A stretch of DNA of 48,349 bases, from positions 1 to 48,349 of IMG/VR virus record IMGVR_UViG_3300024988_000243. One strand, 5' to 3'. Position numbers and translations under genes: made by a program. The notes under the pieces were generated by a model, which worked only from the letters and a program-made list of their open reading frames with translations, did no database searches and had not been told where the DNA came from. This document shows, piece by piece, positions 547 to 46,828 of the stretch (position 1 is its first letter; each line of letters begins with the position of its first letter). This stretch comes from a virus (Duplodnaviria > Caudoviricetes).

Positions 547-849
547 GGTTATCATCATAGGCTTTGAGTCGCAGCAGTGTAATATGTGTTCTAAGGAAAA
601 TACATATCCGAAAGCGCCAGAAAAAAGTTTTAGATATTTTTTTTGAAAACGCAAAACTATATTTTTCATTTGAATCACAACATTTAACAATCTATCGAAA
701 TCTTTTTAAACTCTACTTCTTAGATTTACTCATGCTTTACTGGAAATTTTATCTGAGTGGAAAATTGAATAGGGTATAAAATCCCTTTACGTCGTGTATT
801 TAAACTTATCTTATTATTAATGTAATCAATCTCATTAGCTTTAGTCCAT

Positions 850-1000
850 CAGGCTTAAAAAAGGATGACACCTCGATGAGTTCTTTTGTTTTTAACCAAG
901 ATAGATAGTCCTAGTACAATTGCCACTGTCTCAGATGGAAATTGTACCGAGTCAGTAATTGCTCAGAAACGAGAGTCGACACAAATGTCTTTTCTTCACG
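850..1000 (-). pseudogene. Degenerate excisionase-like HTH gene remnant
   Basis: Minus strand reads FPSETVAIVLGLS, then WLKTK in another frame, with stops. Resembles small prophage Xis/HTH proteins and lies at the end of the leftward early operon. Confidence 0.4.
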
Positions 1001-1087
1001 CCTGATTTTTTACTTTCAATAGACTAAGAATTTTCAAGCCACCTTATGCAATGTAAATATTTTATATTTCTCAATTTATTAGCTTAA

Positions 1088-1489
1088 TTAGAAATACTTT
1101 AATTGTGCATCAGCATTTTCTTCAGCCAAATATTCTAATTGTGAATTTAGTTTTATAACTTGACTCTCTGTCAGTGAAATCTGTAAACCATTTGGAATAT
1201 CAGTGTTGTCATTACTTTTAATGATAACAAAACTGCAGTCATCAACAGTTAATTGTTGATATTCTTGAACACGATAATCTTCATATTGATAATTTGAACC
1301 ATAATGGTTTGGAATATAACTGAGTTCACGAGTTTTAGTAATAGAAGATGCATACATAGAACATTCTATAACGATACATCCGAACTTTAAACTAAAATAG
1401 ACTAATTCTTCATTTACTTCGATATCATCTGAAACAGTGAATTTAGGAAGTTGTGGACAGAATAGTTCTGATTTTGCCTGCATATTCAT
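1088..1489 (-). CDS. Prophage early-left hypothetical protein
   Basis: 133 aa ORF coupled to the upstream ORF, downstream of the OL operators. Confidence 0.7.
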   Translation of the reverse strand: MNMQAKSELFCPQLPKFTVSDDIEVNEELVYFSLKFGCIVIECSMYASSITKTRELSYIPNHYGSNYQYEDYRVQEYQQLTVDDCSFVIIKSNDNTDIPNGLQISLTESQVIKLNSQLEYLAEENADAQLKYF

Positions 1490-1764
1490 TACTGATTTCC
1501 TATATGAGTAATCAAATTAATTGCATTATTTTTATCAATTAGATGAATTGGATTTCGTATAGATGGTTCAATGCGGCTATTTTTGCTTAAATGGCTGGCA
1601 GCCCAACAAAGTAAGGCTAAACACATGCCAAATAACATAAGTAAAGCAAGTGTTTTTAATACAATGATTTTAAATGTTGTGTATCGATTGAGATTTTGTT
1701 TCCGAATACACTTTAAGATAAATAAACGCTCGGCTTCATTTGCTAAACATGTTTTTAGGTCCAT
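1489..1764 (-). CDS. Prophage early-left small membrane protein
   Basis: 91 aa with one hydrophobic segment (IIVLKTLALLMLFGMCLALLCWAA). Confidence 0.65.
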   Translation of the reverse strand: MDLKTCLANEAERLFILKCIRKQNLNRYTTFKIIVLKTLALLMLFGMCLALLCWAASHLSKNSRIEPSIRNPIHLIDKNNAINLITHIGNQ

Positions 1765-1835
1765 AGCTTTTTACTCTTGAGATTTAAGCTTGTTGCTTAA
1801 AATTTTTGGATTCTTATTCCGCAATGAAGTAAATA

Positions 1836-1870
1836 CTACTAAAAGTAGAATAAAAGTCAACAATTAGTAG
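1836..1870. promoter_or_regulatory. Left operators (OL), two 13-bp palindromic sites
   Basis: CTACTAAAAGTAG at 1836-1848 and CAACAATTAGTAG at 1858-1870. The same motif occurs between cI and cro. Confidence 0.75.
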
Positions 1871-1900
1871 CTTTTATTTTCTACTTTAAATTTTTTTTAT

Positions 1901-1928
1901 AAAAAAAGCCTACTTTTAAAGTAGGCTT
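1901..1928 (-). terminator. Intrinsic terminator downstream of cI
   Basis: AAGCCTACTTT/AAAGTAGGCTT inverted repeat followed by a T run on the minus strand. Confidence 0.7.
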
Positions 1929-1995
1929 GATAACGTTCAATGAAGATTTTTTTTAAATTTTGATCATTCAAAAGTTTTAGTAGATTGTATTTTAA

Positions 1996-2667
1996 TTATA
2001 TTTTTCTATATAAACCAACAACTTTACCTACTAATCGGCAGCCGTCAGAAAGTTTGATTATTTTTTCGGGCCAATTAGGATTTAACGGTTCCAGAAATTT
2101 ATCAGATCCTTCTATTATTAATTTTTTAAAAGTTGCTTCAGTATCGCCTAAACATGCGACGATAACTAAATCATTTGTTTTTAGGTCGCTCACCTGAAAA
2201 TCTGGATTCACGTAAATCCTATCCTGAGGCTCAAACTTAGGAGACATCGAATAGCCAGTTACAATCAAACCATATCCATTTTTACCACATTCTTTAATTG
2301 GTGGTAGATATTCGTCTACTTCCGCATCTCTTAACACTGTTTCAATAGGGCTAAAGGAACCAGCTGCTACCCAAGAAATCACAGGAATTTTTTTACTTTC
2401 TTCAAATCTAATCTTTTTAGATAAATCAACATTTCCATCTAATATTGATCCATGATTTAAAAAACTAATATCTACATTAAATATTTCAGCTAGTTTTTTT
2501 AATTTTTCTTCTCTTGGTTTCGCTGTACCTAATGTATATCTACGAGCCATTTCATAGGTAACACCCATAGCATCTTTTAGATCATTTACAGATTTAATCG
2601 TTGAGTCTTTTGCACTCATTAGATGTTGTAAGCGTTTTGCAAAATCTTGGTACTTGGGTAATTGCAT
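1996..2667 (-). CDS. cI: CI-like phage repressor (HTH plus S24 autopeptidase)
   Basis: N-terminal HTH, VAAG cleavage site, catalytic GYSMSP and TFKKL. RecA-inducible type. Confidence 0.93.
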   Translation of the reverse strand: MQLPKYQDFAKRLQHLMSAKDSTIKSVNDLKDAMGVTYEMARRYTLGTAKPREEKLKKLAEIFNVDISFLNHGSILDGNVDLSKKIRFEESKKIPVISWVAAGSFSPIETVLRDAEVDEYLPPIKECGKNGYGLIVTGYSMSPKFEPQDRIYVNPDFQVSDLKTNDLVIVACLGDTEATFKKLIIEGSDKFLEPLNPNWPEKIIKLSDGCRLVGKVVGLYRKI

Positions 2668-2682
2668 TACATTTGCTCTTTT

Positions 2683-2762
2683 CTACCTTTAGTAGAATTT
2701 ACTACTAAATTTAAGTTGCATCAATTCTATTTTTAGTTGTATATTGTTTCTACTAAAAGTAG
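2683..2762. promoter_or_regulatory. Right operators (OR), three 13-bp sites between cI and cro
   Basis: CTACCTTTAGTAG 2683-2695, CTATTTTTAGTTG 2727-2739, CTACTAAAAGTAG 2750-2762. Confidence 0.75.
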
Positions 2763-2776
2763 TTTTTGGGGTTTTT

Positions 2777-3001
2777 ATGTCACAAAAAGAAGCTTTCGAG
2801 AAAGCAGTGGAAATAGCGGGAACGAGGACAGCTTTAGCTAAAGTATTGGGAATTAGACCATGGGCTTTATTTAAATGGAATTTAGACAAAATTCCAGAAA
2901 ATCGCTGTGAGCAAATTGAACAATTTACTCAGGGTGAGGTTAAGGCATCAGAGCTTCGTCCAGATATTAATTGGAATTATATTCGCAACAAAAAAGCCTG
3001 A
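2777..3001 (+). CDS. cro: Cro-like (YdaS family) regulator
   Basis: Divergent from cI; GTRTALAKVLGI HTH and C-terminal ELRPDI signature. Confidence 0.88.
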   Translation: MSQKEAFEKAVEIAGTRTALAKVLGIRPWALFKWNLDKIPENRCEQIEQFTQGEVKASELRPDINWNYIRNKKA

Positions 3002-3044
3002 TTTCGGAGATAAGGCGAGTATTTATTAAATACAGGATCAATGA

Positions 3045-3917
3045 ATGAAAGCAAATTTAGTAAATAAACACGAAGAATTATCTCAATGTGAGGTTGTTGT
3101 GTTTCCACGAACAGGGCGTCTAGAAACCTCAAAGAAAGAAGAGGGATATACTAAAATGCCTAACTCTTTAATTGATAACCAAATCATGGCGCAATTAAAT
3201 GATAAGGCTTTTAAATGCCTTATGTTTATAGTACGCCAAACATTAGGATTTGATCGTACATTTCATACAATTGCGATTACTCAATTTCAAAAATATTGTG
3301 GTATCAGAAAACGTGACACAGTCATGGGTTGTATTAAAGAACTCGAAAATAAAAAACTTATTGAAGTTAAGCGCAAATCAGGATGTCTAAATGAATATTC
3401 AATAAACAATAACCCATCTCTTGAAAGGGTACTACCAGTAAAACAGACTACTCCCGTTAAAAGTAATGAGAGTCGTACCGCCAAATGGGACGGGACTAGT
3501 CCTATCAAACGGGACTCTAATAAAGAAATATTTAAAGAAACGTTTAAAGAAAATATAAATGAAATTTTTGAGTTTTGGAAAACTACATTTGCAAAGACAG
3601 ATAAAGTTATTTTAACCGAAAAACGTAAATCAAAGATTCAGGCACGCTTAAAAGAAGGGTATTCGGTTCAAGATATTAGAGCGGCAATAGTGAATTGTTC
3701 AAAATCCAAATATCACATTGATCAGGGATATACCGATATTGAATTAATTTGCCGTGAGCCTGAAAAGCTTGATCGTTTTCTTGGCATGAACACACTGAAC
3801 CAAATTACTGGCGTTCAACCTAATTTAGATAGCCGAAATGTAAATCAGATTTGGGAACAAATGCCAACCTATTATGAGCCAGTAGAATCTATTGAGTTAG
3901 AGGAGTGGATGGTATGA
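3045..3917 (+). CDS. Phage replication initiator, lambda O-like
   Basis: EEGYTKMPNSLID N-terminus, winged HTH, low-complexity middle with degenerate AAAnGGGAC repeats (~3425-3520, possible origin). Confidence 0.85.
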   Translation: MKANLVNKHEELSQCEVVVFPRTGRLETSKKEEGYTKMPNSLIDNQIMAQLNDKAFKCLMFIVRQTLGFDRTFHTIAITQFQKYCGIRKRDTVMGCIKELENKKLIEVKRKSGCLNEYSINNNPSLERVLPVKQTTPVKSNESRTAKWDGTSPIKRDSNKEIFKETFKENINEIFEFWKTTFAKTDKVILTEKRKSKIQARLKEGYSVQDIRAAIVNCSKSKYHIDQGYTDIELICREPEKLDRFLGMNTLNQITGVQPNLDSRNVNQIWEQMPTYYEPVESIELEEWMV

Positions 3918-4657
3918 ATGCAATGTCCCCTACAAAAAACATTCAAAGTAAATTGCTATGTCCTCAACACAATACTCGAATGATTGTTATGTTCGGCAGG
4001 GAAAGTTGCCCTATTTGTGCTGTTGAATATGTAAAAGCGTCAAACCATATGCATACCAAACAAGTTAACCATGCAATTCGTCAAAAACATTTTGCGGGTG
4101 CGATCTTACCAAAACGCCATGAAAATTCTGGATTTCGTAATTATATGACAATCTCATCTGGTCAAAAGCTGGCATTGAAGCAAACCACTGATTATGCGAA
4201 AGAAATTATTGGTGGTTCGATAGCCAATTTAGTTATGGTTGGTAGTACAGGGACTGGAAAGACACATTTGTCATGCGCAACTGCAAGAACATTATTAGCG
4301 AAGGGTAAATATGCGCGATACATCACGAGTGAGCATATGGCTCAAAAGATAATGAAATCATGGAATAAGGATAATAAAGATCAGTCAGAACAATCCGTTA
4401 TTGCTGAATTTACTCAATATGATTTGTTGATTCTTGATGAATATGGATTGCATGACCGAGATAAAAGATTAGAACTGGTACATAAGGTTTTGTACGCACG
4501 TTATGACGAAGGTAAGGCAACGATGCTTATTTCAAACATGACGCTTGAGCAGCTAAAAATAGATCTAGGGGATCGTCTTTGGTCTCGATTCCAGCATGGT
4601 GGTCTAACAATTGTCGAATGTAATTGGAATGATGCTCGTAAAGGTAAAGCATCATGA
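3914..4657 (+). CDS. DnaC/IstB-like ATPase helicase loader
   Basis: Cys/His zinc motif, Walker A GSTGTGKT, Walker B LLILDE, GDRLWSR. ATGA overlap with the initiator. Confidence 0.9.
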   Translation: MNAMSPTKNIQSKLLCPQHNTRMIVMFGRESCPICAVEYVKASNHMHTKQVNHAIRQKHFAGAILPKRHENSGFRNYMTISSGQKLALKQTTDYAKEIIGGSIANLVMVGSTGTGKTHLSCATARTLLAKGKYARYITSEHMAQKIMKSWNKDNKDQSEQSVIAEFTQYDLLILDEYGLHDRDKRLELVHKVLYARYDEGKATMLISNMTLEQLKIDLGDRLWSRFQHGGLTIVECNWNDARKGKAS

Positions 4658-4911
4658 TAAACCACGCAAAATTATCCATACCATTTGGTTTTATGATTCA
4701 GGTGCTAATACATAATATAAAAGTTATTAAGTATATTCACTCTAGTCAATATATTTACCTTAGTTATGTATTAAAAATATTAGGGCAACGATATTTAGAA
4801 CTTAAGAAATGCTTCGAAGATTTAATCAATGATTTTAACAGGGCTAATAAATATCAAGATTTTAAATCAATAAAATGTTATTTGAGAGAAAAATATGGAT
4901 TTAAGTCGTAG
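4654..4911 (+). CDS. Hypothetical phage protein
   Basis: 85 aa ORF with ATGA coupling to the loader gene. Confidence 0.5.
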   Translation: MINHAKLSIPFGFMIQVLIHNIKVIKYIHSSQYIYLSYVLKILGQRYLELKKCFEDLINDFNRANKYQDFKSIKCYLREKYGFKS

Positions 4912-5176
4912 AGAGGTTTTAGTTTTGAAAATGAGATCTGATTTTGAAAATTGGTTAAAGAGACAAAATCAATATATGGTTTTAAAATTTCAGCATGGTT
5001 TAGATGTATTGAAATATAGCCCAATTGAAGGATATCAAATACCAGCAGTCGATTTGGCATTTAAACTTTGGAAAGAGCTAAGTTTATGCCGTGAGGAGAA
5101 TAAAACTTTATTAAGAAAATTTAATATTTCTTGCTCCACGCCTACTACTTTATTAGAGGAAAAATATCATGGCTAA
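4895..5176 (+). CDS. Hypothetical phage protein
   Basis: 93 aa ORF overlapping both neighbours in the operon. Confidence 0.6.
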   Translation: MDLSRREVLVLKMRSDFENWLKRQNQYMVLKFQHGLDVLKYSPIEGYQIPAVDLAFKLWKELSLCREENKTLLRKFNISCSTPTTLLEEKYHG

Positions 5177-5870
5177 AAGAACTGATTTAGAGAAACGGGT
5201 TTTAATTGGTCGAAAACTTGCACTTGCGAGAGAAAGAGCTGGTTTACGTCAGGATGATGTTGCTATTGAACTGTTTGGTGTTGCTCAAAAAAATCGTATT
5301 TCAGAAATGGAAAATGGCAAGACGCTACCAGATGCTGAATTACTACAAGTAATGTGTAGTTTATATCATGTCTCTGTTGATTGGGTGTTAGGTTTTACGA
5401 TTAATCCTGAACTGAATGAAACTGAATCAATAGCAGGGATTTTATTTAATGGTTTAGGAGATTTACTGGCTGATAATTTAAATGCAATAACTTCACAAAT
5501 GGCATTGTTATGCGCCAAACATGTCGCATCATTTCCACCTGCATTACAGGTTCGTTTATTAGAACATGCGAAGACTCTTGCTAAAAAATTTATTACCTTA
5601 GATCGAGAACAACAGGAGAAATTACAGCCAGAGATGCTAGATTTACTTCAAACGATTCAAGAGTGTGATAAAGATCGAGCGATTCAGTTTACAAATCTAG
5701 CTAAAGGTATTGAAGACATTACGGAACGAGATGAAGCAGAAATCCAAGAGAAATTACTTCAAGATTTGAAAAGCCAACGTAAAACACGTTTTATTCAAAC
5801 CACTTTGCCCAGCGAGAAAAAAAAGGAACCACAGTTTGATTTTTTTGCAGGTAATATCTTGAATAGTTAA
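5169..5870 (+). CDS. XRE-family HTH regulator, candidate late-gene activator
   Basis: IGRKLALARERAGLRQDDVA...ISEMENGKTLP HTH_3 pattern; last gene of the early-right operon. Confidence 0.8.
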   Translation: MAKRTDLEKRVLIGRKLALARERAGLRQDDVAIELFGVAQKNRISEMENGKTLPDAELLQVMCSLYHVSVDWVLGFTINPELNETESIAGILFNGLGDLLADNLNAITSQMALLCAKHVASFPPALQVRLLEHAKTLAKKFITLDREQQEKLQPEMLDLLQTIQECDKDRAIQFTNLAKGIEDITERDEAEIQEKLLQDLKSQRKTRFIQTTLPSEKKKEPQFDFFAGNILNS

Positions 5871-6148
5871 CTCTATATTTACATCATTTTTTTGCTAAAC
5901 AATAATGGATATCTCTAATTATTTTATGAGATATCCTCAAATCATGATGGGAAGTAGTGAATCATGTGAGGGGCAGATTTGTTATTTAATATACTTTACT
6001 CAAAAAACTATAAAAAGACTGAGTGATAGGTTGGTTTTATGATTTAGAATAAAATGATTTTAATTTGAAGTGAAATATTTAACTTCAAAGTGTTTAATGT
6101 ATTTGATACTATAAAAATAGTTAAAATTATTAAATTGCTGAGAGTAAC

Positions 6149-7042
6149 ATGTCTAATAAACCTGAGTTAATTTTAGTTGCAGATAAACAAAAATTATTAG
6201 AATTAGCTAAAGGATCAAAAATTGAATTTGATAAGAAACTGTTTATTCAAATATCTCTCGCTACAGCAACCATAGTTTCAAAATTTAATCCGATTGCCGC
6301 ACTTATTACTACTGTTGCCGCCACAGCTTATAACTTTGGAAAATCATCGACAGTGGTTGAGGAGGAGGAATTCTTATTAGAGAGAATATTAGAAAAAATT
6401 CAAAATGAGCTTGCTTTATCAAGTCAAATATCCTATGTAACACCTTCAAACGCATCTTCTTTAAAATTAGGCATTGGTGATAAACCTACTAATGGTAGTT
6501 TTTACATTAAACATCCTTTACTTGAAGATTTTTATATAAGACCAAGCGAATACGAACTAACGTTGGCGAGAGAAAAGGAAGCTGCCTTTAGATCTTTAGC
6601 AAGTTGTTTGGGTGCAAAAAGTATAACTTTACTAGATGCAAAACTAATTGACAGTAGTGGTAAGATAAAACTTAATTCAAAAACAATGCAATCGGTCAGT
6701 TCTAATATTGGTATTAGTGCAAGTTTTGATAAAAATGGAGTTGTTAGCCGTGCAGTTTACAGTGAATTTGGCTTACCTAGAAAAGAGCCGTATATTCCTG
6801 CCGAATTAAAATTATGGACTGAATTTGATCCTGACTTGCGAACAATGGCACGAGACCGTTTAGATGGTCATTTGATTAAACATCGAATCAGCCTAAGATT
6901 TATGGATAACTTTTCTGGTGGTGGGAAAATAGCAGCAGAAATTGCAAATAAAGGATTAGATATTGGCGGTAAGATTACAAGAAATCTGAGTTCTGTCTGG
7001 ATTTTTGAAGTAGAGTATTATCCACTTAATGTAGCAGTATAA
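6149..7042 (+). CDS. Accessory (moron) hypothetical protein
   Basis: 297 aa stand-alone ORF with AT-rich flanks; family not recognised. Confidence 0.75.
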   Translation: MSNKPELILVADKQKLLELAKGSKIEFDKKLFIQISLATATIVSKFNPIAALITTVAATAYNFGKSSTVVEEEEFLLERILEKIQNELALSSQISYVTPSNASSLKLGIGDKPTNGSFYIKHPLLEDFYIRPSEYELTLAREKEAAFRSLASCLGAKSITLLDAKLIDSSGKIKLNSKTMQSVSSNIGISASFDKNGVVSRAVYSEFGLPRKEPYIPAELKLWTEFDPDLRTMARDRLDGHLIKHRISLRFMDNFSGGGKIAAEIANKGLDIGGKITRNLSSVWIFEVEYYPLNVAV

Positions 7043-7131
7043 TTATCTATAAAAAACTTTATTCTATAATGGCGTTTGTTTCTCAATTATTTGGTAAAAA
7101 TATAACATTTACAGGTTATTTTTTCGAATAA

Positions 7132-7172
7132 TCGGAACTGTAGTAAATAGCTTGTCTACTCAATGCCAAAAT
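7132..7172 (+). promoter_or_regulatory. Putative late promoter motif, copy 1 of 14
   Basis: TCGGAAC-N28-CAAAAT upstream of the tape measure gene; the other copies are listed under findings. Confidence 0.7.
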
Positions 7173-7202
7173 CACGCTATGTAAAAATAGGGTGATTTTT
7201 TT

Positions 7203-9395
7203 ATGTCTAATCTAGGAAGTGGCTTACAGTATGATGAACTTGGCTTTCTTATTGGCTTACAACAAACTAGTCGTGATGTATCGAAAATTGATAGTAATAT
7301 TGAAAATATACGTAATATTTTGCTAGATTTACACAAAGAATTAGAAAAAAATTTTTCAATTCAAGATAATCAATTTGAGTTAAAATTAAGCGCTTTAGAA
7401 AAAGCACTTTTAGATGCGAAAATTAAGCCAACTGAATTTTCTGATTTAATCAAAGAACAGACTAAACCCATTATTCAAACTAATCTTGCATTAAATCGTG
7501 TCGCTAAATCAATTGAAGATTTAATAGCTGAATCCAACAAAATAGATGATAAAAAATCAGAACCTATACTGAAGCCTAAATGCTCTGCAATTCAAATAAA
7601 TAGCGCTGAAGATGTTATACGTGAATTTGGTAATAATAAGCCCCTAAAAGATCTGAATGATCAATCAGTTAGCTCTAATTCAGATCAAACAATATTCAAT
7701 AAAACTGCTCAAACTATACAGACAGCAATTCGCATGATACCAGCGCCTAATTTGCAAGGTATAGATCCAACATTAGATGCAATTAATGAAGTTGCAACTG
7801 TACTATCACCAGTAAAGCGAGCTGCTGGATTTATGCTACGTCCGCTTACTGGTTGGATGAAGTCACGCAAACGTAATGAGCCATTGCCAAAAGAACAAAG
7901 TGACCATAATCGAAAACAAGTAAAACTACTTCAGCGAATTGCTGATAATCTGCAATCTAGGGGCGGTTTGCTTGGTGGATTAGAAAAGCTACTTGGTGCT
8001 GGTGGAGGTCTACTAGGTGGTCTTTTGGGTGGTCTACTTGGCAAAGGTAAAGGCTTAGGCAAAGGTCTAGCTAAAATCCTCAAATTTGGTAAAGGTTTAC
8101 CTGTAATTGGTGCATTACTCACTGCTATGTCATTTAGTGATTGGGGCACTAAATCAACCAAAGAAAAAGGCGGTACTGTAGGTTCGGCTGTCGGTGGGAT
8201 TGCTGGTGGTGCGATAGGAAGTATCTTTGGACCCGTTGGAACAATTGCAGGGGCTGCAATAGGTTCATGGGTGGGTGAGAAGCTAGGTGGTATCGTAGCG
8301 CCGTATGTAAAAGAATGGACGGATTCTTTAATTGAGGCTGATATACCGTCAATGATTTCAAAGCTTGTCAGTACCGCTTTGAAACTTACACCTGCTGGAA
8401 TGGCTAAGTCACTGTATGACTGGGGCAAAGAAAAATGGAATGAAAAATTTAACGGGCAACCGAATCCAAGTTATCTTTTAAGAAGCCAATATGGTGGGAA
8501 AGGGGTTAACGAGGCGAATCCTGTTCAATTTGGAGCTGCTTATAACTCGAATAAGCCTTTGGAAGAATCAGGAAAAAGAAATGCGGCTTTAGATTTTTTC
8601 ATGGCAAAAGGGTGGAGTAAAGCTCAAGCTTCAGGGATCGTAGCTAATTTAGAAGCAGAAAGTGGTCTTGAGCATAACATTTATAATCGTGATGGCAGCG
8701 GAATGTATGGCCTAGCTCAGTGGTCTAAGACGAGACAGAAACAATTTAAAAAGAAATATGGTAAAAGTATTCAGCAAGCGACTTTTCAAGAACAGCTTGA
8801 GTTTATTAATTATGAAATGACACAAGGAGAAGAAATACCCGCAGGAAAAAAATTAAAAAAAGCTAAAACGGCAAGTGAAGCAGGTCGTGTAGTATCAGAG
8901 TCTTATGAACGTCATGATGAAGGAGAAAGAGAGCATATAAAAAGGGCAAATTTAGCAAATAATATTTACACCAAATCAGAGGGAAATATTCAAACACATA
9001 AAGTTGACAATAAAATAAACAAAGCAGAAACACCTAAAAAATCAGATGATCTTGCAAAGTTTGCTCAAAATGCTGAAATTCCCGTAGCTAGTCCGACTAC
9101 GCAGCAAGAAGCTGAAAAGATAGTACAAAAAGCAAAACAAAATGTACCTGTATTAAATATGCAAACCACAGTTAAACCTATAGCAGCACGGTCCAATAAT
9201 ATTTCAGCGAATTATACACCTCCAAAAGTGGAAACAAATGTGTTGCCAGCAAAAGAGTTTTTAAATTCACCTGCACCACAGGAAGTTGTTGTTACTAATC
9301 AAAATAGTGGTACTATCAATCAAAATGTGAGCAATCGATTATTAGCTCATGCGATTACTGGTGGGTTGGGAATGGGGGACAAGTTTAATGGGTAA
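7203..9395 (+). CDS. Tape measure protein with tail lysozyme domain (P1 Sit-like role)
   Basis: Helical N-half, Gly-rich hydrophobic repeats (GGLLGG, GGAIGSIFGPVG), lysozyme block GWSKAQASGIVANLEAESG...GLAQW. Confidence 0.85.
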   Translation: MSNLGSGLQYDELGFLIGLQQTSRDVSKIDSNIENIRNILLDLHKELEKNFSIQDNQFELKLSALEKALLDAKIKPTEFSDLIKEQTKPIIQTNLALNRVAKSIEDLIAESNKIDDKKSEPILKPKCSAIQINSAEDVIREFGNNKPLKDLNDQSVSSNSDQTIFNKTAQTIQTAIRMIPAPNLQGIDPTLDAINEVATVLSPVKRAAGFMLRPLTGWMKSRKRNEPLPKEQSDHNRKQVKLLQRIADNLQSRGGLLGGLEKLLGAGGGLLGGLLGGLLGKGKGLGKGLAKILKFGKGLPVIGALLTAMSFSDWGTKSTKEKGGTVGSAVGGIAGGAIGSIFGPVGTIAGAAIGSWVGEKLGGIVAPYVKEWTDSLIEADIPSMISKLVSTALKLTPAGMAKSLYDWGKEKWNEKFNGQPNPSYLLRSQYGGKGVNEANPVQFGAAYNSNKPLEESGKRNAALDFFMAKGWSKAQASGIVANLEAESGLEHNIYNRDGSGMYGLAQWSKTRQKQFKKKYGKSIQQATFQEQLEFINYEMTQGEEIPAGKKLKKAKTASEAGRVVSESYERHDEGEREHIKRANLANNIYTKSEGNIQTHKVDNKINKAETPKKSDDLAKFAQNAEIPVASPTTQQEAEKIVQKAKQNVPVLNMQTTVKPIAARSNNISANYTPPKVETNVLPAKEFLNSPAPQEVVVTNQNSGTINQNVSNRLLAHAITGGLGMGDKFNG

Positions 9396-9675
9396 ACTGG
9401 TATTTAGCCTAATTTTAGGAATTTTGCCAATCGCTGCAAATGCTAATTATTTTCCTCCTCTGGATGTTCAAAAACTGATTGAACATCAAGAGGTACTTAA
9501 TGAGAAATGTCGCGGTGGTTCTGGTAAAAATCCAAAGACATGGCAAGCTTGTAATAAAAGGGATGAAATAACCAAAAAAATAGAGAAGAAAGGTTATTGT
9601 AAGGGATCAGTCAATAAGGATGCCTACGGGTATGAAAAGGAATGGATTCCTTGTAAATTAGATAAGACAAGGTAA
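9388..9675 (+). CDS. Small exported Cys-rich protein
   Basis: Signal peptide ending ANA, four Cys, CRGGSG motif. Confidence 0.7.
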   Translation: MGKLVFSLILGILPIAANANYFPPLDVQKLIEHQEVLNEKCRGGSGKNPKTWQACNKRDEITKKIEKKGYCKGSVNKDAYGYEKEWIPCKLDKTR

Positions 9676-9686
9676 ATATTTTTTCT

Positions 9687-37691: not shown

Positions 37692-37748
37692 CCAGTCTTG
37701 AAGCTCTCAAAATAGTCCTAAATGGGCTATTTTTTTTGAGTTTTTGAA

Positions 37749-38914: not shown

Positions 38915-39836
38915 GCTCAGGTAATACGGCTCGAATCTATTATATTGTAACAGATGCACAAAACACTCCAAGACGTTTAATTGACAGCGGGACACAAGCA
39001 GTTGCATGGAGTTGGGACAGTACAGCCTTTGGTCTAGGTGCTCCAACGGGTACAGAAACTTTTAACTTACGTTTTCCAGGTCAGTATTTTGATGCGGCAA
39101 CAGGTCAGTTCTATAATCACAATCGTTATTACAACCCTGAATTGGGTCGTTATATGGAAGCTGATCCGATTGGGTTAGATGGTGGTCTGAATCCGTATGC
39201 GTATGCAGGTAGCAATCCTGTCATGTTTAGTGATCCAAGTGGATTAATGAGTATGTTGGATGATGCTGGTTTATCAATGGTTACAGGTCTTAATAATTCA
39301 TTAAATCAGATTATTCTTAACCAGCAGATTAAACTGTTAAATAGCTCCTTAGCAATGACAGAGTTATCAGATTCTGAGCTAGGTAATATTACAGGGGGGG
39401 TGCCCCATTGTTTTATGTTGGTGGAGCTGCTTTAGGATTTACCCTATCTGTTGATAGTTTGGTAGATGGTCAACCCCCTCAAGGAAAAGGGGCAAAAGTT
39501 GCAGATAAGGCATTTGATTTTTATAGAGGGGCTAAAGCAGCCAATATTCCACATTTTAATCCGCGACCAAGTGACTTTAAAGTTGATCTTAACGGTTTTG
39601 TAAAAAATGGCAGTGACCCTTTTGCGCGAGGAGTATCGTTATTTGATAATTCTAACAGTTTAATTTCAAAGGGGTTTATTCCATATAAGGTTGATCCAAA
39701 AAGTTTTCCAAAAGAACTAGGAATTTTTCAGAGAGCTACAGATCCAAAACATTTTGAAATTATTCCTACTCCTGGAACTTTTTTAACTCCTGAGCAATAT
39801 ATACACTTGTGTTCTCAAATTAAATGTGTGAGATGA
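38903..39836 (+). pseudogene. rhs: Orphan Rhs core plus C-terminal toxin (Tse2/ADP-ribosyltransferase-like), frameshifted at a G7 tract
   Basis: NLRFPGQY...HNRYYNPELGRY...DPIGLDGGLNPYAYAGSNPV..DPSG; toxin FYRG..RGVS..HFEIIP in the next frame; G7 at 39394-39400. Confidence 0.8.
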
Positions 39837-40129
39837 AACTAATGGAAAACTATACTATTAATTCTCCTGATGATTTTCAGGATTATGATTGGGAATATGA
39901 ATCTAAAGGATGCTTAGAAATTGATGTTACAATTTTTGAAGATTCTTATATTTTTAATTTTTATGATATGCGAAGAATATATAATGCAGAGAATGCCAAC
40001 TATCTTGGAAGTAATTGTTTCTACGATAAAAATTTAGTTCTATTATCCAGCGTTAATTTGAATAATATTAAGGATTTTTTGAATAAAATTGTGGAAAGAA
40101 ATGAATTATCATATTTTATTAAAAAGTAA
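39833..40129 (+). CDS. Putative cognate immunity protein
   Basis: Small acidic ORF with ATGA overlap on the toxin stop. Confidence 0.7.
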   Translation: MKLMENYTINSPDDFQDYDWEYESKGCLEIDVTIFEDSYIFNFYDMRRIYNAENANYLGSNCFYDKNLVLLSSVNLNNIKDFLNKIVERNELSYFIKK

Positions 40130-40475
40130 TTAATACGTTATTTAAGTCAATATTGTGTGGCATTTCACTGTTGTAGGGTGGAATAACTAGCTGGTGAAAT
40201 ACTAACCAATTATTCTCCTGAGAGTAATTGGTTTTTTATCAGAGGTTAAAAAGTAGGTGGAGAGAGATTGTATAAGAATATCTATGCATTGAAATAGAGG
40301 TGTTTTATACAGGTCAAGTTAAATTATACTTTTAATATTAACGCAATTTATAGAAACAAATTGGACCAGATCATTAAGAAAGTAGAAGCCACTTTACAAG
40401 CTGCATGATTGGAACTTGATTAAAATTCATAATCAAATTTGTTGAAAAATAGCCTTATCAAGATAGGGCTTTTTT

Positions 40476-41318
40476 ATGGCAAATGACATCAATGGTGTTC
40501 AGGCAGCAAATGCTGATAAGACAACTTTACCCGTGGATTATAGTGCTGATCCATTCTGGGGTTATGTGTCTAAACATAAATTTGCTGAGTTTAATCTATG
40601 CACGATGGAACGTGATGCAGAAACTAAAGAACCAATTTTCTCGTACGACTTGTCACAGCCGACTATTCGAGCATTCTTGACTGATGGGGATATTAGTTTT
40701 GAAAGCCAATGGCAAACTCCGTTTGAGAACTCTAATCCTGAATTAAAAATGCCTATGATGATGGCTGCCCTACAAACTGGGCAAGCTTTGGCTTCAGGTG
40801 GCGCTGCTGGTACAGCGATTCGAAACAATTTGGGTGATGCTGCAGCTGATCTTATTAGTAAAGGATTTCAACCTTTAGCTGATTTTGCAAAAAGTGTTGA
40901 AGGCAAAACCAATCTTAATAAAGTTAATACAACTCAAGTCTTTCTTTCTACAGCTTCAGTTCATCTTAACTTAAGTGTTTTCTTTATTGCTTTAAAAGAT
41001 GCTCGAGCAGAAGTCGAGAACAAATTGATGTATCTCCAGTCTTGGTCATTACCAACAAAATTATCACAAGGAACGGTTCTGACAGATTTAATTTCAGAGG
41101 GAGGAGACGGTTTATTTTCAGGATTAATTCCTCCCTACATCACTGTCACCACACACGGTAAAACTTATATGCCTTTTATTCTCCAAAGTGTATCAGCACC
41201 TATTGTTGCACCTATTGATAAAGAGGGTAATCGACTAAGCCTTAGTGTGAATTTAAGCCTGATTAGTCGAGCAGCTTGGGATGCTCAAGATGTTCGTAAT
41301 TTATATAAAGTCGAATGA
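40476..41318 (+). CDS. Baseplate/tail tube initiator (T4 gp48-like)
   Basis: ESQWQTPFEN and PFILQSVSAP blocks; preceded by a late motif. Confidence 0.6.
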   Translation: MANDINGVQAANADKTTLPVDYSADPFWGYVSKHKFAEFNLCTMERDAETKEPIFSYDLSQPTIRAFLTDGDISFESQWQTPFENSNPELKMPMMMAALQTGQALASGGAAGTAIRNNLGDAAADLISKGFQPLADFAKSVEGKTNLNKVNTTQVFLSTASVHLNLSVFFIALKDARAEVENKLMYLQSWSLPTKLSQGTVLTDLISEGGDGLFSGLIPPYITVTTHGKTYMPFILQSVSAPIVAPIDKEGNRLSLSVNLSLISRAAWDAQDVRNLYKVE

Positions 41319-41328
41319 AGGATAGTAA

Positions 41329-42027
41329 ATGTTAAATTTTGATCCGATCCCTATTGGTGGGAAAACCTATCAGCTAAATGAAATTAGCTTTAATGAGGCG
41401 TTAAAAGTCGCTGCAATTGATCCTAAATTGAATGAGAAACGAATAACGTCTTTTTTGTCTCAAGCTTTGCAGAATCCACAATTACCTTTAATGATGACAG
41501 CTCAAGAACGATATTTCTTGATGATCAAGTATGTGCAAAATCAAACCAATACTTTGTTCTCGAGCAACATGGATTTATCAAATTGCTTTAAAGAACAAAT
41601 GAGTTGGGCTTCGGAGGTTTCCGAAGTTGGTATAACGGTTCGCCAAATAAATGGAAATGAAGCCGAGTATTTAGAATCAAACTGTAAGAATGCAGCAGAA
41701 TGGATTGCATGTTTATTAGCATTTCAGATTAAGTATGAAAATCATGAGTACTTGGGAGAACTCCCAGACCGTAGTGCAATCGATCAAATTTATAAACAGC
41801 AATTCATTCAGCGTTTAGATTATATAAAAGCACTTCCACAAACTGAATTTAATCTGATCTATCTTGATTATTTGAAGCTAAATAGCGAGCTTTTTACTCA
41901 TATAGAGCTAAGTGTGAACAACGAAGGTTTTGTGGTACAGAGAGGTGCAGATGACGCGCCTGTTCGATTTCGTGCCTCTACCTGTTTTATCGGAATTATC
42001 AAAGAGCTGGACAAGTCATTTACTTAG
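41329..42027 (+). CDS. Baseplate/tail assembly protein
   Basis: MTAQERYFLM motif; operon position. Confidence 0.55.
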   Translation: MLNFDPIPIGGKTYQLNEISFNEALKVAAIDPKLNEKRITSFLSQALQNPQLPLMMTAQERYFLMIKYVQNQTNTLFSSNMDLSNCFKEQMSWASEVSEVGITVRQINGNEAEYLESNCKNAAEWIACLLAFQIKYENHEYLGELPDRSAIDQIYKQQFIQRLDYIKALPQTEFNLIYLDYLKLNSELFTHIELSVNNEGFVVQRGADDAPVRFRASTCFIGIIKELDKSFT

Positions 42028-42031
42028 CACA

Positions 42032-42235
42032 GTGCAAAACTTATCAAGTCACTGCAAGATGTCTTTATTCGATACACTACATTTACCTGTGAGTTTTGAA
42101 GCAGATTATTACGCTTCAGATGCTTGGGATGAGCGAAAGAAAGAAATTGAGAATGATGTGCAAAGGCAAAATACATTATTCAAGCTTGGTAATGAAATAA
42201 TTAAATGTATCAATAATTTAGGTTCGAGAAGATGA
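42032..42235 (+). CDS. Small tail assembly chaperone-like protein
   Basis: MSLFDTLHLPVS pattern followed by a charged helix; reading frame is open from 41930. Confidence 0.5.
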   Translation: MQNLSSHCKMSLFDTLHLPVSFEADYYASDAWDERKKEIENDVQRQNTLFKLGNEIIKCINNLGSRR

Positions 42236-43569
42236 ACACAACAAAGATATTAGGTAAGGCGGTTGAAATACAAAGCCAAGGCACAATAGATAATACCGAA
42301 ACACAAACCAAAGAGGGACTGACTTCAGCCTTAATTATTGGGCAATTTATGCGTGGTCGTATCGATAAACCTATGACTATTCATCAAGGTAATATTCGCG
42401 GTCAATTGGGTCATGAGCCTACTAATATTGATTATCAAGCAGTACAGGATTGCTTAGATACTGGTGTACCTAGTGTCCAAGTGTTGCGTGTCGGGCGAGT
42501 GATTGTAGATCCTGAAGTCCCTCATATCATTAGTTGTGAAGGAGCTACTGAAAATATAGGCTTTTTCATAACTGGTAATTGGCAGATTTATATCGATGAT
42601 GAAATAGAGCCATATGTCGGTGAAATTTCAAATGCATTAAGTCAGCTTTTGTCATCTTATTCAGGAAAAATAACAGGGGATTGGGATGGATCAATGTTTA
42701 TGCAAAATATTGATAGTGTTCCTCATAGATTTAGATTTGTTCCAGTAGAAAATGTAAGTCATGTCGCTACTACAGATAATCCAACATTTATGGAACATGA
42801 AGATGGGAGTCTAACCTTTTGCTTAAACTTCGCCGTAGCTCCTGTGGATCAGGATTTATATACACCAGCGATTCTAGCTCTTAATCCAGTGGCTTACTAC
42901 TTAATGAGTGAAACTGTTGGTTCTGTACTTAATGATTCATCATTATCAGGTTATGACGGAGAGATTCAAGAGACCAGTGCTATTACTTATAAAGCTGATA
43001 AGTTGCGTAAAGGCTCACAAGGATCAATGGGTTTTAATATTGCAAGTAACTGGACGACGGCACAATGCTATGTCAGTGATGCTGTTGCAGGGGATACATT
43101 CAAGAAACTTGCTGCATCTGGAAAGTCTTTCACCATAGCCTTTTGGTTCAAACCCATAGGTATTAGAAATTATAATTGGTTAGCCACATATTTGATAAAT
43201 AAAGACTTTGGTGAAGCAAACTATAGACTTATTGCCTATAATGGTAATGCACTTCTTGGGCAGTCACCTGAGAATCTGAGCCAAGTGTTAATTGAAAGTT
43301 ACGATCAGATGATCAATAAAGTCCAGTTTGTAGTGTGGTGCAAAGATAACGCTACAGGTAGGTTTAGTTTAACTGTGAATGGGATGACTAACACTGCTGT
43401 CGTAAATTCAAATGATGCAAGTTCTGATGGTCTAGGATTCTTTTTCCCAATGTCAGCTGGTTATAGCAGCTATGGTTTACGTGGCTATATGTCTGATATG
43501 GCAGTTTTCGACTACGCATTAACAGATGCGCAAATTGCTAATTTGTATCAAAAAGGAAGAATTGTTTAA
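42232..43569 (+). CDS. Sheath N-terminal module fused to a LamG/ConA-like domain
   Basis: First ~88 aa nearly identical to the 26206 ORF; C-terminal ILALNPVAYY...SFTIAFWFK...MSDMAVFDYALTDAQIANLY. Confidence 0.8.
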   Translation: MNTTKILGKAVEIQSQGTIDNTETQTKEGLTSALIIGQFMRGRIDKPMTIHQGNIRGQLGHEPTNIDYQAVQDCLDTGVPSVQVLRVGRVIVDPEVPHIISCEGATENIGFFITGNWQIYIDDEIEPYVGEISNALSQLLSSYSGKITGDWDGSMFMQNIDSVPHRFRFVPVENVSHVATTDNPTFMEHEDGSLTFCLNFAVAPVDQDLYTPAILALNPVAYYLMSETVGSVLNDSSLSGYDGEIQETSAITYKADKLRKGSQGSMGFNIASNWTTAQCYVSDAVAGDTFKKLAASGKSFTIAFWFKPIGIRNYNWLATYLINKDFGEANYRLIAYNGNALLGQSPENLSQVLIESYDQMINKVQFVVWCKDNATGRFSLTVNGMTNTAVVNSNDASSDGLGFFFPMSAGYSSYGLRGYMSDMAVFDYALTDAQIANLYQKGRIV

Positions 43570-43724
43570 TATCATTAGATATCACGATAAACATAAACCA
43601 CCTAATTAGCTGTCCAATACCATTTGAACAGTTCAAAGACGGTGGTTTTTTATTGGAACATCGTCTCAATCATAGAATTTCAATCCTTCAAAATGAACCT
43701 AAATAAACTTAGGTGAATTACAAA

Positions 43725-44120
43725 ATGGCTGAGCCAGTAAGTAGTGGAGTGGGGGCAGCAGCAATTGTGAAGTTCTATGGTCTAATCACAATTTTATCTA
43801 TTGCAGCTTCTTTAGCATATTTGATTGTTGTCATGACTCGTGAACCGCGATCAAGAAAAGAATGGGTTATTTCGCTTGTAACGACACTCGTTGGAAGTAT
43901 TGCAGGTGGTTCGCTTGTCGTTCAACGATTTGGCTTACATGATTGGTCGTCAAACTGGTTCGGTATGTGTGCCTTAGGTGGAATCATTTTTTGTTGCGGA
44001 TTGCCTTTTTGGGCAATTGTCCGTTGGATCTTTAACTATATAAATGCGCGTGAAAACTCGACGATTTTTGAAGTAGTGAAAGAAGTCAAAAAAGAACTCA
44101 AAGGGGAGAATGAAGAATGA
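43725..44120 (+). CDS. Holin
   Basis: Three TM segments, charged C-tail, ATGA coupling to the endolysin. Confidence 0.75.
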   Translation: MAEPVSSGVGAAAIVKFYGLITILSIAASLAYLIVVMTREPRSRKEWVISLVTTLVGSIAGGSLVVQRFGLHDWSSNWFGMCALGGIIFCCGLPFWAIVRWIFNYINARENSTIFEVVKEVKKELKGENEE

Positions 44121-44626
44121 GTAGTTATCCTGAATTACCTTGGATTGCTGAAGCGCGTAAACATATCGGTTTAAGAGAAGATACAAGCAAATTCAAACAT
44201 TCGCCAATCATTATAAGTTGGTTAAAGGCACTTGGCGCATGGTGGATTGATGATGAAACGCCGTGGTGCGGTACTTTCGTTGCTCACTGTTTACAAACCG
44301 CAGGCATTAAATTCCCTAAAGATTGGTTTCGAGCTTTAGCTTATCTAAGTGGTGGCAATAAGCTAACTAATCCAGCGTACGGTTGTGTTGCTGTTAAAAC
44401 ACGTAAGGGAGGTGGTCATGTCTGTTTTGTCGTAGGTACAGACAAATGGACAGGAAAGCTAGTCTGCTTAGGCGGTAATCAGTCAAATATGGTTAGTTAT
44501 GCTTTATATAACGAATCCGATTTTGAAGCTTTTATGTGGTATGGCCAGACATCTAGTCCAGCTCAACATCGTTATGAGTTGCCATTATTGAGTAATGTAA
44601 AAGCAATTGATATAACAGAAGCATAA
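44117..44626 (+). CDS. Endolysin, TIGR02594-type NlpC/P60-like peptidase
   Basis: PWIAEARKHIG, DDETPWCGTFV, GGGHVCFV, LGGNQS. Confidence 0.88.
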   Translation: MSSYPELPWIAEARKHIGLREDTSKFKHSPIIISWLKALGAWWIDDETPWCGTFVAHCLQTAGIKFPKDWFRALAYLSGGNKLTNPAYGCVAVKTRKGGGHVCFVVGTDKWTGKLVCLGGNQSNMVSYALYNESDFEAFMWYGQTSSPAQHRYELPLLSNVKAIDITEA

Positions 44627-44629
44627 ATT

Positions 44630-44666
44630 AAAAACGCTGATTATTATCATTAATAATCAGCATTTT
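44630..44666. terminator. Bidirectional terminator
   Basis: GCTGATTATTA...TAATAATCAGC flanked by A/T runs. Confidence 0.7.
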
Positions 44667-44675
44667 TAAAAATAG

Positions 44676-45026
44676 TCAATTAATGTGAATTGGATGCCAC
44701 TTATTTTTACTCATTAGATTCGATACTTTGACTTTATATTTTTCTGCTGAAAGTGCATTTTTTTCTTGATGTCTTGTTCTATTACAAAAAAGGCAAGCAG
44801 CTACAATATTAGTTCTTTGGTTTGTACCTCCATCTTGCCGTGCAACAATGTGTTCAGCAGTACATTTTAATAACTGTGCAGAATCTTCTGTAACTCTGTA
44901 GAGCTGACAAAATTCTTTCAGATTTTTAGTCCACATTGGTTGATTACAGTAAAAACAAAGACCATTTTGATTTTTAAAAGATAATGCTCTATATGATCTA
45001 ATAGAACTAGAGAATTTTTTTTTCAT
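44676..45026 (-). CDS. Small HNH endonuclease
   Basis: CFYC...AEHIVARQDGG...NIVAACLFCNRTRH; likely ATG at 45026. Confidence 0.88.
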   Translation of the reverse strand: MKKKFSSSIRSYRALSFKNQNGLCFYCNQPMWTKNLKEFCQLYRVTEDSAQLLKCTAEHIVARQDGGTNQRTNIVAACLFCNRTRHQEKNALSAEKYKVKVSNLMSKNKWHPIHIN

Positions 45027-45419
45027 AGAAGCTCCGATACAAATAAATTTGTTGAAGCTTCTGTGCGTTGGTGTTGCCAAGAAGTGTAAGGTGTTTGGAT
45101 TAGAAACAAGCTAATATTTAATGAATTTTTACCTAGACAAAAAATACAGCAATGTTAAAACAGTACTTACATTCATTAATGATGAACTACATATAAAATA
45201 ATTGAAGTAAAAGTTAGTGTCAATAAGAAAGAAATACGAAAATTAAAATTCTTTAAAAAACAATGATTAATTTTCATTAAAAAAGATAACTGCTTTAGTT
45301 TTATAAATAAATATCACTATGAACATATCAATTAACTATTTTATAGAGAAATGAATTTCATAAGTGTAAAAATAATATAGCTATAAAAATACTTCGGTAA
45401 TATAATTTTTGTAGAAATA

Positions 45420-46667
45420 TTATAATATTTGATTAATATGATTGTTTCTATTTTCTCCCAAGACAACAATTTCAATCTCGTTCATTGCAGAACGTAATTT
45501 TTTATCACTAATCTGAACATAGCCTGTGATGACATCATTCTTGTCCTCCTTCTTATGATTTAGTAGTTTTTTAATTGTATATTTCCCATAGTCCAAACTT
45601 TCGGCAATAGATCCATAGGTACGGCGCAGATCATGAAATGTAAACTGGATACCACAACTTTTATTGATCTTAGCTCTAACTTTTGAAATATTTGTTATGT
45701 GGCCAGATTCAGATTTTGCAGAAGGGAAAACCCAATCTACAGTAATTTGCTTTCTACGCTTCTTCATCATTTCCCAGAGGAAATCGCCCATTGGTAGGGT
45801 GTGTGGTACATTGTTCTTAGGATCTATTGAAGTGATATACCCATATTTTAAATCCAAATCAGACCATGCTAGTGACTCGCATTCTTCACGTCTAAAGCCG
45901 GTTAGGATTAACGTGATGAGAAAGTCTTTGTTGGTCTCAAGCTGCTGTCCTCGATCTTCAAAGTTTAGAACAGCTTTAATCCAATCTGATAGCTTGTCTT
46001 GATTGATATATGAGCTACGTCTACGAATCTTATTCCATGACTTTTTAGTTGTTAAAGTTTTGACTGGATTGAGTGGGGGGATGATGGGTTGTTCATCGTC
46101 ATCTAGATAGTATTCGATCGAAAAATTATAAATTGCTCGAAACACACGCATACACATATTGGCTTGAGCTTTACTGTTAACTGAAAGCTCTTTATGTTTT
46201 TCTTGAACCATTATTCTAGTAATGTCTTTAAGCTTAGTATCCTTCCAAGCTTTTAAGTAGCCATTAACCACATCACTGTAATCTTCTAATGTACGCAGCT
46301 TTAATGTTCGTTCATTAATATAGACGAGATATGCTTCATTTAAAGTCGGCTGAGAATTTTCAATATCAAAAATTGATTTAGCATCTGCAATCTTCTTCTT
46401 TTTCTTATCTATTGGCTTTATACCCATCGTTATGTCTAAAAGAGCTTCTTGAGCCAATACTCTTGCTTGAGCCAGAGTAATTTGGCCATGAATACCTAGA
46501 GTAGACCGAGTAGACCTGCCATTAACCTTTTTCTCAACAATATAAGTTTTATATGAAGTATTTACACGCACAGCAAAGCCAATTAACTCGCTATCACGAT
46601 AAATCGCAGGAATTAATTCGAGTTGATCAATAAATGACTTAGTTAGCTTTACTCTATCAGCTGACAT
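45420..46667 (-). CDS. int: Tyrosine integrase with arm-binding domain
   Basis: LTGFRREE, HDLRRT, LLNH, GYV catalytic set; N-terminal arm DNA-binding domain. Confidence 0.95.
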   Translation of the reverse strand: MSADRVKLTKSFIDQLELIPAIYRDSELIGFAVRVNTSYKTYIVEKKVNGRSTRSTLGIHGQITLAQARVLAQEALLDITMGIKPIDKKKKKIADAKSIFDIENSQPTLNEAYLVYINERTLKLRTLEDYSDVVNGYLKAWKDTKLKDITRIMVQEKHKELSVNSKAQANMCMRVFRAIYNFSIEYYLDDDEQPIIPPLNPVKTLTTKKSWNKIRRRSSYINQDKLSDWIKAVLNFEDRGQQLETNKDFLITLILTGFRREECESLAWSDLDLKYGYITSIDPKNNVPHTLPMGDFLWEMMKKRRKQITVDWVFPSAKSESGHITNISKVRAKINKSCGIQFTFHDLRRTYGSIAESLDYGKYTIKKLLNHKKEDKNDVITGYVQISDKKLRSAMNEIEIVVLGENRNNHINQIL

Positions 46668-46723
46668 AAGCTAGAATCCGCTTGTTTTAACAACAATTAG
46701 CTACATATTACAATAATTCTTAC

Positions 46724-46742
46724 GGTCTACTATAGGTCTACT
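46724..46742. repeat. Tandem GGTCTACT repeat, putative integrase arm sites
   Basis: GGTCTACT at 46724 and 46735 (11 bp period), upstream of int. Confidence 0.55.
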
Positions 46743-46828
46743 CAAGAAAAAACTTGTAATTCAAATTGAATTTGGCTAATATTGTTTTTGAATGGAAATG
46801 TTGATAATACAAGCATTTACAGTTTATA

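Follow-up and report, generated by a model that had tools for sequence, protein, structure and literature searches.

A terminase-less P1-like Acinetobacter prophage as a candidate tailocin-like locus that keeps its head genes

The 48,349-nt provirus record IMGVR_UViG_3300024988_000243 (hereafter the window, to whose DNA analysis of the host was confined) carries, at about positions 675–46868, an element of about 46 kb: a prophage like coliphage P1 and the myophage ABMM1, with a lambdoid early arm, lying at a tRNA(CAT) site. Its packaging and excision genes are gone; its head, tail and lysis genes are open. From its anatomy, its deletions, its sharing between strains and its selection pattern, I tentatively favour, with a confidence a little short of even, the reading that it is a host-kept, damage-inducible prophage cluster releasing empty proheads and free tails similar to R-type tailocins, of which R-pyocin is an example. 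The particles that the element likely makes would be free of DNA, and the tails would probably kill related bacteria.

An earlier, sequence-only reading had found no terminase open reading frame (ORF) in the element, and homology searches agree. No terL was detected by tblastn of ABMM1 TerL against the window (best E value 2.8), and the profiles phrog_2, PF03237, phrog_4179 (terS position) and phrog_4315 (gp25) gave 0 matches at E ≤ 10 in the six frames of the window, which rules out a terminase concealed in another frame. Besides terL, the element lacks the gene at the terS position, the orthologue of P1 gp25, attL and a working xis, and hence the terminase, the two att sites and the excisionase of a functional temperate phage; like R-type tailocins, it is free of a packaging motor. 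The damage is selective, as that reading had stated, but goes beyond the terminase, xis, att and ddrB that it named: the element has further lost an ABMM1 gp82-like gene, RusA, the 280-aa gene after the helix-turn-helix (HTH) gene, the recombination arm, a DarB-like SNF2/methylase gene of 1236 aa and some 180 darA codons, and two conserved ORFs have been lost besides RusA, the SNF2/methylase gene and the darA codons. Three lesions that it had described were confirmed by comparison with relatives. The remnant of xis differs by at least 8 indels in 267 nt from the 88-aa xis of genome G003 (A. modestus). The att repeat is missing through loss of attL: G003 and genome G001 have a copy of the tRNA 5' half right behind plsC, and the window jumps from 643 to 675 at the place of 329 nt in G003. 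Two in-frame stops, at 38649 and 38820, interrupt ddrB, which breaks off at 38903. Every deletion leaves the next late promoter or ribosome-binding site in place.

Terminase loss is exceptional in the ABMM1/P1-like family. Eighteen capsid-centred loci were fetched (three pairs being duplicates), of which 15 reach the terminase position; all 15 have a full terL, preceded in 13 by gp01, and gp05 is present in 16 of the 16 loci covering its position. Gene product gp02 corresponds to P1 PacB (E 2e-79) and gp05 to P1 gp25 (E 3e-42), the fold of which is that of a phage SWIM-domain-like protein, with no match in the PDB; gp01 is regarded as a putative terS on the strength of where it lies and of an Atlas lead (11% of a look-alike cluster having Terminase_6C). 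Among 247 Acinetobacter species genomes the capsid occurs in 21 and terL in 20 of these, the sole exception being a contig of 12.7 kb whose start lies downstream of the terminase position.

What remains is extensive. The cI/cro, RepO/DnaC, protease, capsid, portal, sheath, tube, baseplate, fibre, holin-like, CHAP lysin and integrase ORFs are all open, as had been claimed for the particle, lysis, switch and replication genes, and P1-type morphogenesis orthologues stand in the ABMM1 gene order, as expected of descent. P1 proteins match the portal (E 2e-41), protease (3e-23), BplA (4e-16) and capsid (5e-5). The contractile tail set comprises open sheath, tube, tape measure, hub, spike, wedge and fibre genes; gp25 is gone, and terminator and stopper are proposed from an Atlas lead (terminator: T4-gp15 family, score 0.88, 12% of members) and synteny only. 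Sequence and profile searches gave no assignment of adaptor, stopper or terminator to P1 proteins, and no PmgC orthologue was identified by them. The upstream motifs also survive, in line with the sequence-only reading: TTGGAAC occurs 16 times on the plus strand against 3.9 expected, 13 of these at 58–79 nt before late genes. A bipartite late motif, T(T/C)GGAAC-N28-31-A(A/G/C)AAT, has 12 surviving copies in the window, all on the plus strand, and is found in all 8 intact relatives and in ABMM1 (5–12 copies each, on one strand only).

The same locus is present in other strains. Part of the region 15900–23000 was found in twenty sequencing runs from 14 studies, 16 of them with half or more, two possibly representing the window's own sample. 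Six runs were aligned to the window, X6 and X8 (same study, same counts) being treated as one; X1 and X2 were excluded. An isolate contig of 59,314 nt from X6 covers 11884–20419 with 153 substitutions and no gap, and therefore carries both deletions, of terminase and of gp25. Its alignment and that of X8 run on through the integrase, the tRNA and the right flank; X10 reaches across the terS junction, differing at 2 positions in 736 nt, and the left arm is covered piecewise at about 99% by X9, X10 and X12. Four pieces of X6, amounting to 26,245 nt of which 89% is coding, contain 460 substitutions (1.75% divergence) and 4 indel events, all 4 intergenic, a count that excludes the cold-shock piece (3 gap letters, two of which compensate each other within the gene) and a compensating pair from a paralogous 259-nt repeat. 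An independent contig with the same junctions at this divergence rules out an assembly artefact. Cargo has been swapped between the window and X6 at 10767–11883, 35076–35825 and 39220–40444. At 38903, X6 and X8 have 4,383 extra nt, room for a full Rhs gene, with a C-terminus and an immunity gene that differ from the window's; they share with the window the ddrB stop at 38820. Among the top X6 alleles listed, particle genes have 16 synonymous and 3 nonsynonymous codons and two cargo genes 12 and 17; in proteins from a contig equal in length to that of X6, the portal differs at 6 residues, the protease at 2 and the sheath at 1. The strain-level dN/dS rests on these top alleles and on five proteins. 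Shared deletions at 1.75% divergence, intergenic indels, capsid and tail constraint and relaxation of portal and DarA support the grounding and selective loss of the earlier reading, and retention across strains. In a metagenome scan one identical copy and one 1.6-kb relative were found, neither counted as support; no terminase-less junctions were found in viral_contigs, a set that possibly omits near-identical records; and four RNA runs contained only 5–8% of the window's words.

Selection was assessed against the four nearest intact prophages by three-taxon codon counts, for which the neutral nonsynonymous:synonymous ratio is 2.5–2.8:1. For Hdf, PmgA, BplA, gp16, hub, spike and PmgG the window lies inside intact-prophage diversity (dS 0.04–0.13 to the nearest), the baseplate genes being 97–100% identical to those of circulating prophages. 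The HTH regulator, protease, capsid, portal, gp21, sheath and DarA lie far outside it (mean dS 0.65–1.7), and for capsid and portal the next cluster among the candidates scored is at no more than 87%. This difference in dS points to an old backbone that would be swapping baseplate genes with circulating phages, in either direction. Changes private to the window (nonsynonymous:synonymous) amount to 17:80 in the capsid, 11:33 in the sheath, 3:20 in the tube and 14:72 in the baseplate group; these genes are constrained as in terminase-bearing relatives. The portal is relaxed (32:59 versus 7:46 in intact phages, p 0.006), as are DarA (30:30 versus 6:26, p 0.004) and gp21 (31:25 versus 4:21, p 0.001), all at ratios far under the neutral one. 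A second, independent test agrees with the codon counts for the head genes: the portal is altered at 4 of 95 columns that are at least 90% conserved in 72 homologues, against 0–1 in each of 17 close relatives, and the capsid at none of its 112 highly conserved columns, against 0–4 in 21 relatives. Since the portal is the DNA gate and DarA a DNA-contacting internal protein, their relaxation fits a long period without packaging; it would also fit a donor phage with a divergent terminase. The structural genes do not carry the inactivating changes, nor the dN/dS near 1, of a neutrally decaying cryptic prophage, on a branch that includes time before the loss.

On the favoured reading of a host-kept cluster, RecA-dependent cleavage of cI would, as in general phage biology, start the cro-RepO-DnaC arm, and the locus would amplify in place because attL and xis are lost. 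The HTH protein would activate 12–13 TTGGAAC late promoters, tails and proheads would assemble apart because terminase is missing, and holin and CHAP lysin would set the particles free. The contractile tails would then kill related Acinetobacter in R-type tailocin fashion, their baseplate and tip genes being exchanged with circulating phages through recombination. Free tails are favoured because the P1 pacA knockout yields roughly as many complete tails as proheads, and no joined virions (PMC9024508), because the text consulted on the structure of the P1 virion makes no mention of gp25 (PMC12810830), and because gp25 knock-down leaves a plating efficiency of 0.11 (PMC10695390). The sequence-only reading had envisaged tails, or protein-filled heads plus tails: the former would be expected by analogy with pacA, but joined heads are less likely because unpackaged P1 and T4 heads do not join tails and because ddrB, the DarB-like gene and part of darA are decaying.

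Several points weigh against a tailocin-like cluster. Particle, induction and killing are all predicted from genes. The tails may be defective without gp25, since this protein is annotated 'tail stability' in P1 and its gene is kept in all 16 relatives' loci covering the position. After Bonferroni correction over 27 genes gp21 alone is significant, and gp21 is essential in P1, yet relaxed in the window; the tail-core group is relaxed as a whole (0.57 versus 0.29, p 0.003); and the long branch of the window may be mostly older than the terminase loss. As to other strains, X6 and X8 come from one study and look clonal, and X6 has no cover over 420–9757, so that switch, replication and tape-measure genes are seen only outside it; by record coordinates its 20420–28349 is 1 nt shorter, a net loss that falls somewhere within 20420–26206. 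A fixed site is indicated by the same right flank in X6 and X8, with the lysin present and attL lost, the left flank and the attL loss being seen in the window only. Unlike genus-wide tailocins, the element occurs in none of the three species genomes nearest to its host (the site is empty in G145 and G179, and G230 has no capsid match). Lastly, a tail-only function needs no capsid constrained as in active phages, and the capsid constraint is left unaccounted for.

The element could instead be a defective prophage of the ordinary kind that is slowly decaying, a hybrid that was grounded, had its packaging genes deleted, was refreshed by recombination with superinfecting relatives and owes its gene constraint to an active past. 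This is unlikely but stays serious because terminase and att loss is common in degraded prophages, according to two surveys (PMC7744054, PMC13626063). The ddrB, Rhs and darA genes are decaying, the presence of baseplate genes within intact-prophage diversity (dS 0.04–0.13) indicates recent exchange, and independent strains are few. Slow decay is at odds with capsid, portal, protease and sheath genes that are open without a close intact donor (next clusters at 87%; dS 0.6–1.4), with gene-specific relaxation and with indels that are intergenic in 4 of 4 events; moreover, about 8 nonsense changes would be expected on a single branch if the 460 differences were neutral, and the window's particle genes have none. 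Packaging in trans, whether by a helper phage or by a terminase encoded elsewhere in the host genome, would make the element transducing or satellite-like and would suit its open portal, capsid, replication and integrase genes and the abundance of related phages. This is hardly probable at all: attL and xis for excision are gone, as is the terS-position gene, the site of pac in P1; portal relaxation speaks against a working motor partner; and the junctions are identical, and fixed in place, from strain to strain.

Because the conserved capsid remains a loose end, readings that give the head a use must also be weighed. In a rather unlikely one, the element would be a domesticated phage with the capsid itself as the selected product: DNA-free P1-type heads, their portal freed from the motor, would be joined to tails for killing or protein delivery, or serve as decoy or poison shells against related phages with which the locus swaps baseplate genes. 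Interference with phages, a quite improbable reading, would have an incoming ABMM1-like phage trans-activate the shared late promoters, whereupon the resident capsid and altered portal would poison phage heads or the resident lysis genes abort the infection. This would account for the retained head genes and is consistent with the motif common to all 8 intact relatives and ABMM1, with a portal altered at conserved positions beside a conserved capsid and with integration of relatives at the same site; it leaves fibres, tape measure, the element's own cI/Rep arm and refreshed baseplate genes unnecessary, and the cargo genes had no convincing match to PADLOC defence families (best E 0.001). It is very unlikely that the altered portal lets empty or protein-filled heads join tails in a DNA-free particle, a PBSX-shaped killer or protein-delivery device. 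Genes for capsid, protease, portal, Hdf, the DarA N-part, DdrA and probable stopper and terminator are kept, and portal changes are mildly enriched in residues 273–345 (11/68 versus 26/355, p 0.03, for an interval chosen post hoc), which I take to be the clip, the domain names of the portal changes being likewise assumed. Unpackaged proheads nevertheless fail to join tails in P1 and T4, the main ejected cargoes DdrB and DarB-like are broken or lost, and no PmgC adaptor orthologue was identified in the searches above.

The flanks are those of an Acinetobacter, the plsC-like gene being 93–95% identical to those of G003, G145 and G230. Terminase-bearing P1-like prophages occupy the same plsC–tRNA interval in G001, G002 and G003; in G145 and G179 the site is empty. 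The element appears to be a hybrid, because its integrase is 91% identical to those of separate same-site remnants in G002 and G003, far above the 49–53% shared with those of P1-like relatives; its early arm (cI, cro, RepO, DnaC) is nearest other Acinetobacter prophages (56–80% aa). In G001, G002 and G003 the interval (L021–L039) holds tandem prophage arrays with a common att core in the tRNA 5' half, and two integrase types, about 51% alike, use this one site. The tRNA(CAT) at 46815–46905, which ARAGORN calls Met, is presumably tRNA-Ile2. The tRNA-Met at 10239 was rejected as an att partner: it has no self-match to the tRNA at 46829 and is cargo in G251. Past the tRNA, the flank at 46977–48349 is 98% identical to G003 against 93% on the plsC side, and this difference suggests a separately transferred island.

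The features of the window are collected in Table 1. The sheath N-terminal domain is encoded separately, twice (26207–26465 and 42233–42491, 83% nt identity), the second copy being fused to a LamG lectin domain; relatives have 2–3 copies of this kind that vary in their C-termini and may be adhesins decorating the sheath. Cargo ORFs of low GC or on the reverse strand (unknown, DUF6765, HNH) lie at 6149–7042, 28621–29578, 35065–35895 and 44676–45080, and 29153–29578 varies strongly between strains. An Rhs toxin/immunity cassette (38904–40129) has invaded ddrB behind a late promoter; G094 has a full 1620-aa Rhs (L233:7420–12282), and no intact relative checked has Rhs at ddrB. Among the relatives' terminases, six loci (L005, L007, L008, L010, L015, L017) have a second, diverged terL-like stretch right after the intact terL, 24–46% identical to ABMM1 TerL, and TerL of ABMM1 (L001:682–2673) and relatives has an insertion at about residues 62–208 without counterpart in P1 PacB, which I presume to be an intein. 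An opposite remnant lies in G172 (C1, about 294–302 kb; L238), where terL, collar, Tub and darA pieces are kept and capsid and sheath have no match in the genome.

Table 1. Features of the window and the evidence for each
Feature	Positions	Strand	Evidence or comment
Host flank: plsC-like acyltransferase and upstream region	1–643	-	PF01553; 93–95% nt to G003, G145, G230
Deletion scar, former attL	643–675		G003 has 329 nt there, including tRNA 5'-half copy
xis pseudogene, start lost	about 760–1010	-	70% nt to G003 xis (HTH_17-like)
cI (HTH and S24 peptidase) on -, cro on +	1996–3001		A-G site, Ser, Lys motifs read from sequence
RepO-like initiator and DnaC-like loader, both open	3045–4657	+	Nearest relatives 66% and 80% aa
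HTH regulator, in all intact relatives; candidate late activator	5169–5870	+	phrog_7396
Tape measure with lysozyme domain, 730 aa (ABMM1 762 aa)	7203–9395	+	Profile/family matches
Cargo: tRNA-Met, cold-shock protein, 304-aa ORF	10239–11876	+	304-aa ORF absent from X6, X9, X12 forms
Hdf, 12493 ORF, PmgA-like (position), BplA wedge, gp16-like wedge (position)	11886–15758	+	97–100% aa to G249/G250
Head protease and probable tail terminator	15917–17653	+	P1 Pro E 3e-23; Atlas lead
PBECR1 nuclease-like ORF in terS-terL position	17646–18131	+	PF18809; start ATG is that of the terS-position gene in G250
Collar/fibre protein and gp26 plug	18461–20279	+	Family matches
90-nt scar of deleted gp25 orthologue, next gene's ribosome-binding site kept	20280–20369	+	Comparison with relatives
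gp7-like stopper (synteny only), tail fibre, 100-aa conserved ORF	20370–22861	+	Fibre: P1 S, E 9e-12
Major capsid protein, P1 gp23 family	23016–24770	+	0/112 highly conserved columns altered
Sheath N-part, sheath, gp21 orthologue (C-half relaxed)	26206–28580	+	Family matches and codon counts
Tail tube, 148-aa conserved ORF, hub, spike, 137-aa ORF	29746–32666	+	Hub, spike 98–99% aa to intact prophages
Portal (open, relaxed) and tube initiator (Tub)	32748–34993	+	P1 Prt, PDB 9ums, E 6e-66
darA (in-frame internal deletion, relaxed), ddrA, ddrB pseudogene	35990–38903	+	Comparison with relatives
Rhs toxin gene 3' end (5'-truncated, frameshifted near 39400) and open immunity gene	38904–40129	+	TIGR03696
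PmgG tube linker, PmgB-like chaperone, sheath-N/LamG fusion	40476–43569	+	Family matches
Putative holin-like membrane protein and CHAP/TIGR02594 lysin	43713–44626	+	Late-promoter motif at 43653 upstream
Tyrosine integrase, open	45420–46667	-	91% aa to integrases of other remnants at site
attR core (tRNA 5' half) and host tRNA(CAT) gene	46815–46905	+	ARAGORN: Met

Among published systems, ABMM1 (vB_AbaM_ABMM1, OQ471969; PMC10345192) has the same set and order of late genes as the element (amino-acid identity 61% for the capsid, 62% for the portal and 69% for the tube) and the same late motif, and it too combines a P1-like late arm with an early arm of lambdoid type. It differs in being an active temperate myovirus of 75.7 kb that possesses terL, gp01, gp05 (gp25) and xis; the 46-kb element lacks all of these and attL. 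Orthologues of P1 Prt, Pro, gp23, gp21, BplA, PmgG, Tub, gp26, S, DarA and Hdf are present; P1 itself, whose prophage is a plasmid, has pacA/pacB and gp25, and the window resembles a natural pacA/pacB/gp25 deletion. PBSX of Bacillus subtilis is likewise a defective prophage with head and tail genes and a killer particle, yet it packages 13.4-kb host DNA (bioRxiv 2024.11.15.623857), for which reason, contrary to the sequence-only reading, it did not arise by packaging loss; in the element no terminase is encoded. Loss of att core and packaging genes is also seen in defective prophages that are grounded or border-less (PMC13626063, PMC7744054), but there portal, lysis and structural genes are lost too, which here are kept with gene-specific constraint. 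No report of the element or of an Acinetobacter-made tailocin was found in the mostly open-access literature searched. With R-type tailocins (carotovoricin, PMC13195805; Marinomonas MEDPRO2, PMC10870725) the element has in common a locked contractile tail with baseplate, fibre and lysis genes, no packaging and tip genes that recombine. Those of carotovoricin type and MEDPRO2 have no capsid, in accord with the earlier statement that R-tailocins lack head genes, and no replication genes, and carotovoricin is genus-wide; the element is lineage-restricted and keeps capsid, portal, protease, cI/cro, RepO/DnaC and integrase. It would thus resemble an R-type tailocin in its working, as far as its genes tell, but it is not a member, because open head genes (capsid, portal, protease) and replication genes (RepO, DnaC-like) are kept. 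On the favoured reading it would be a new form of domesticated defective prophage. If active it would give a narrow-range killer for Acinetobacter, and it opens to test the route from myophage to tailocin and the possible benefit of empty capsids to a host: it has the look of a tailocin partway through domestication, with packaging and excision gone and head, switch and replication genes still in place.

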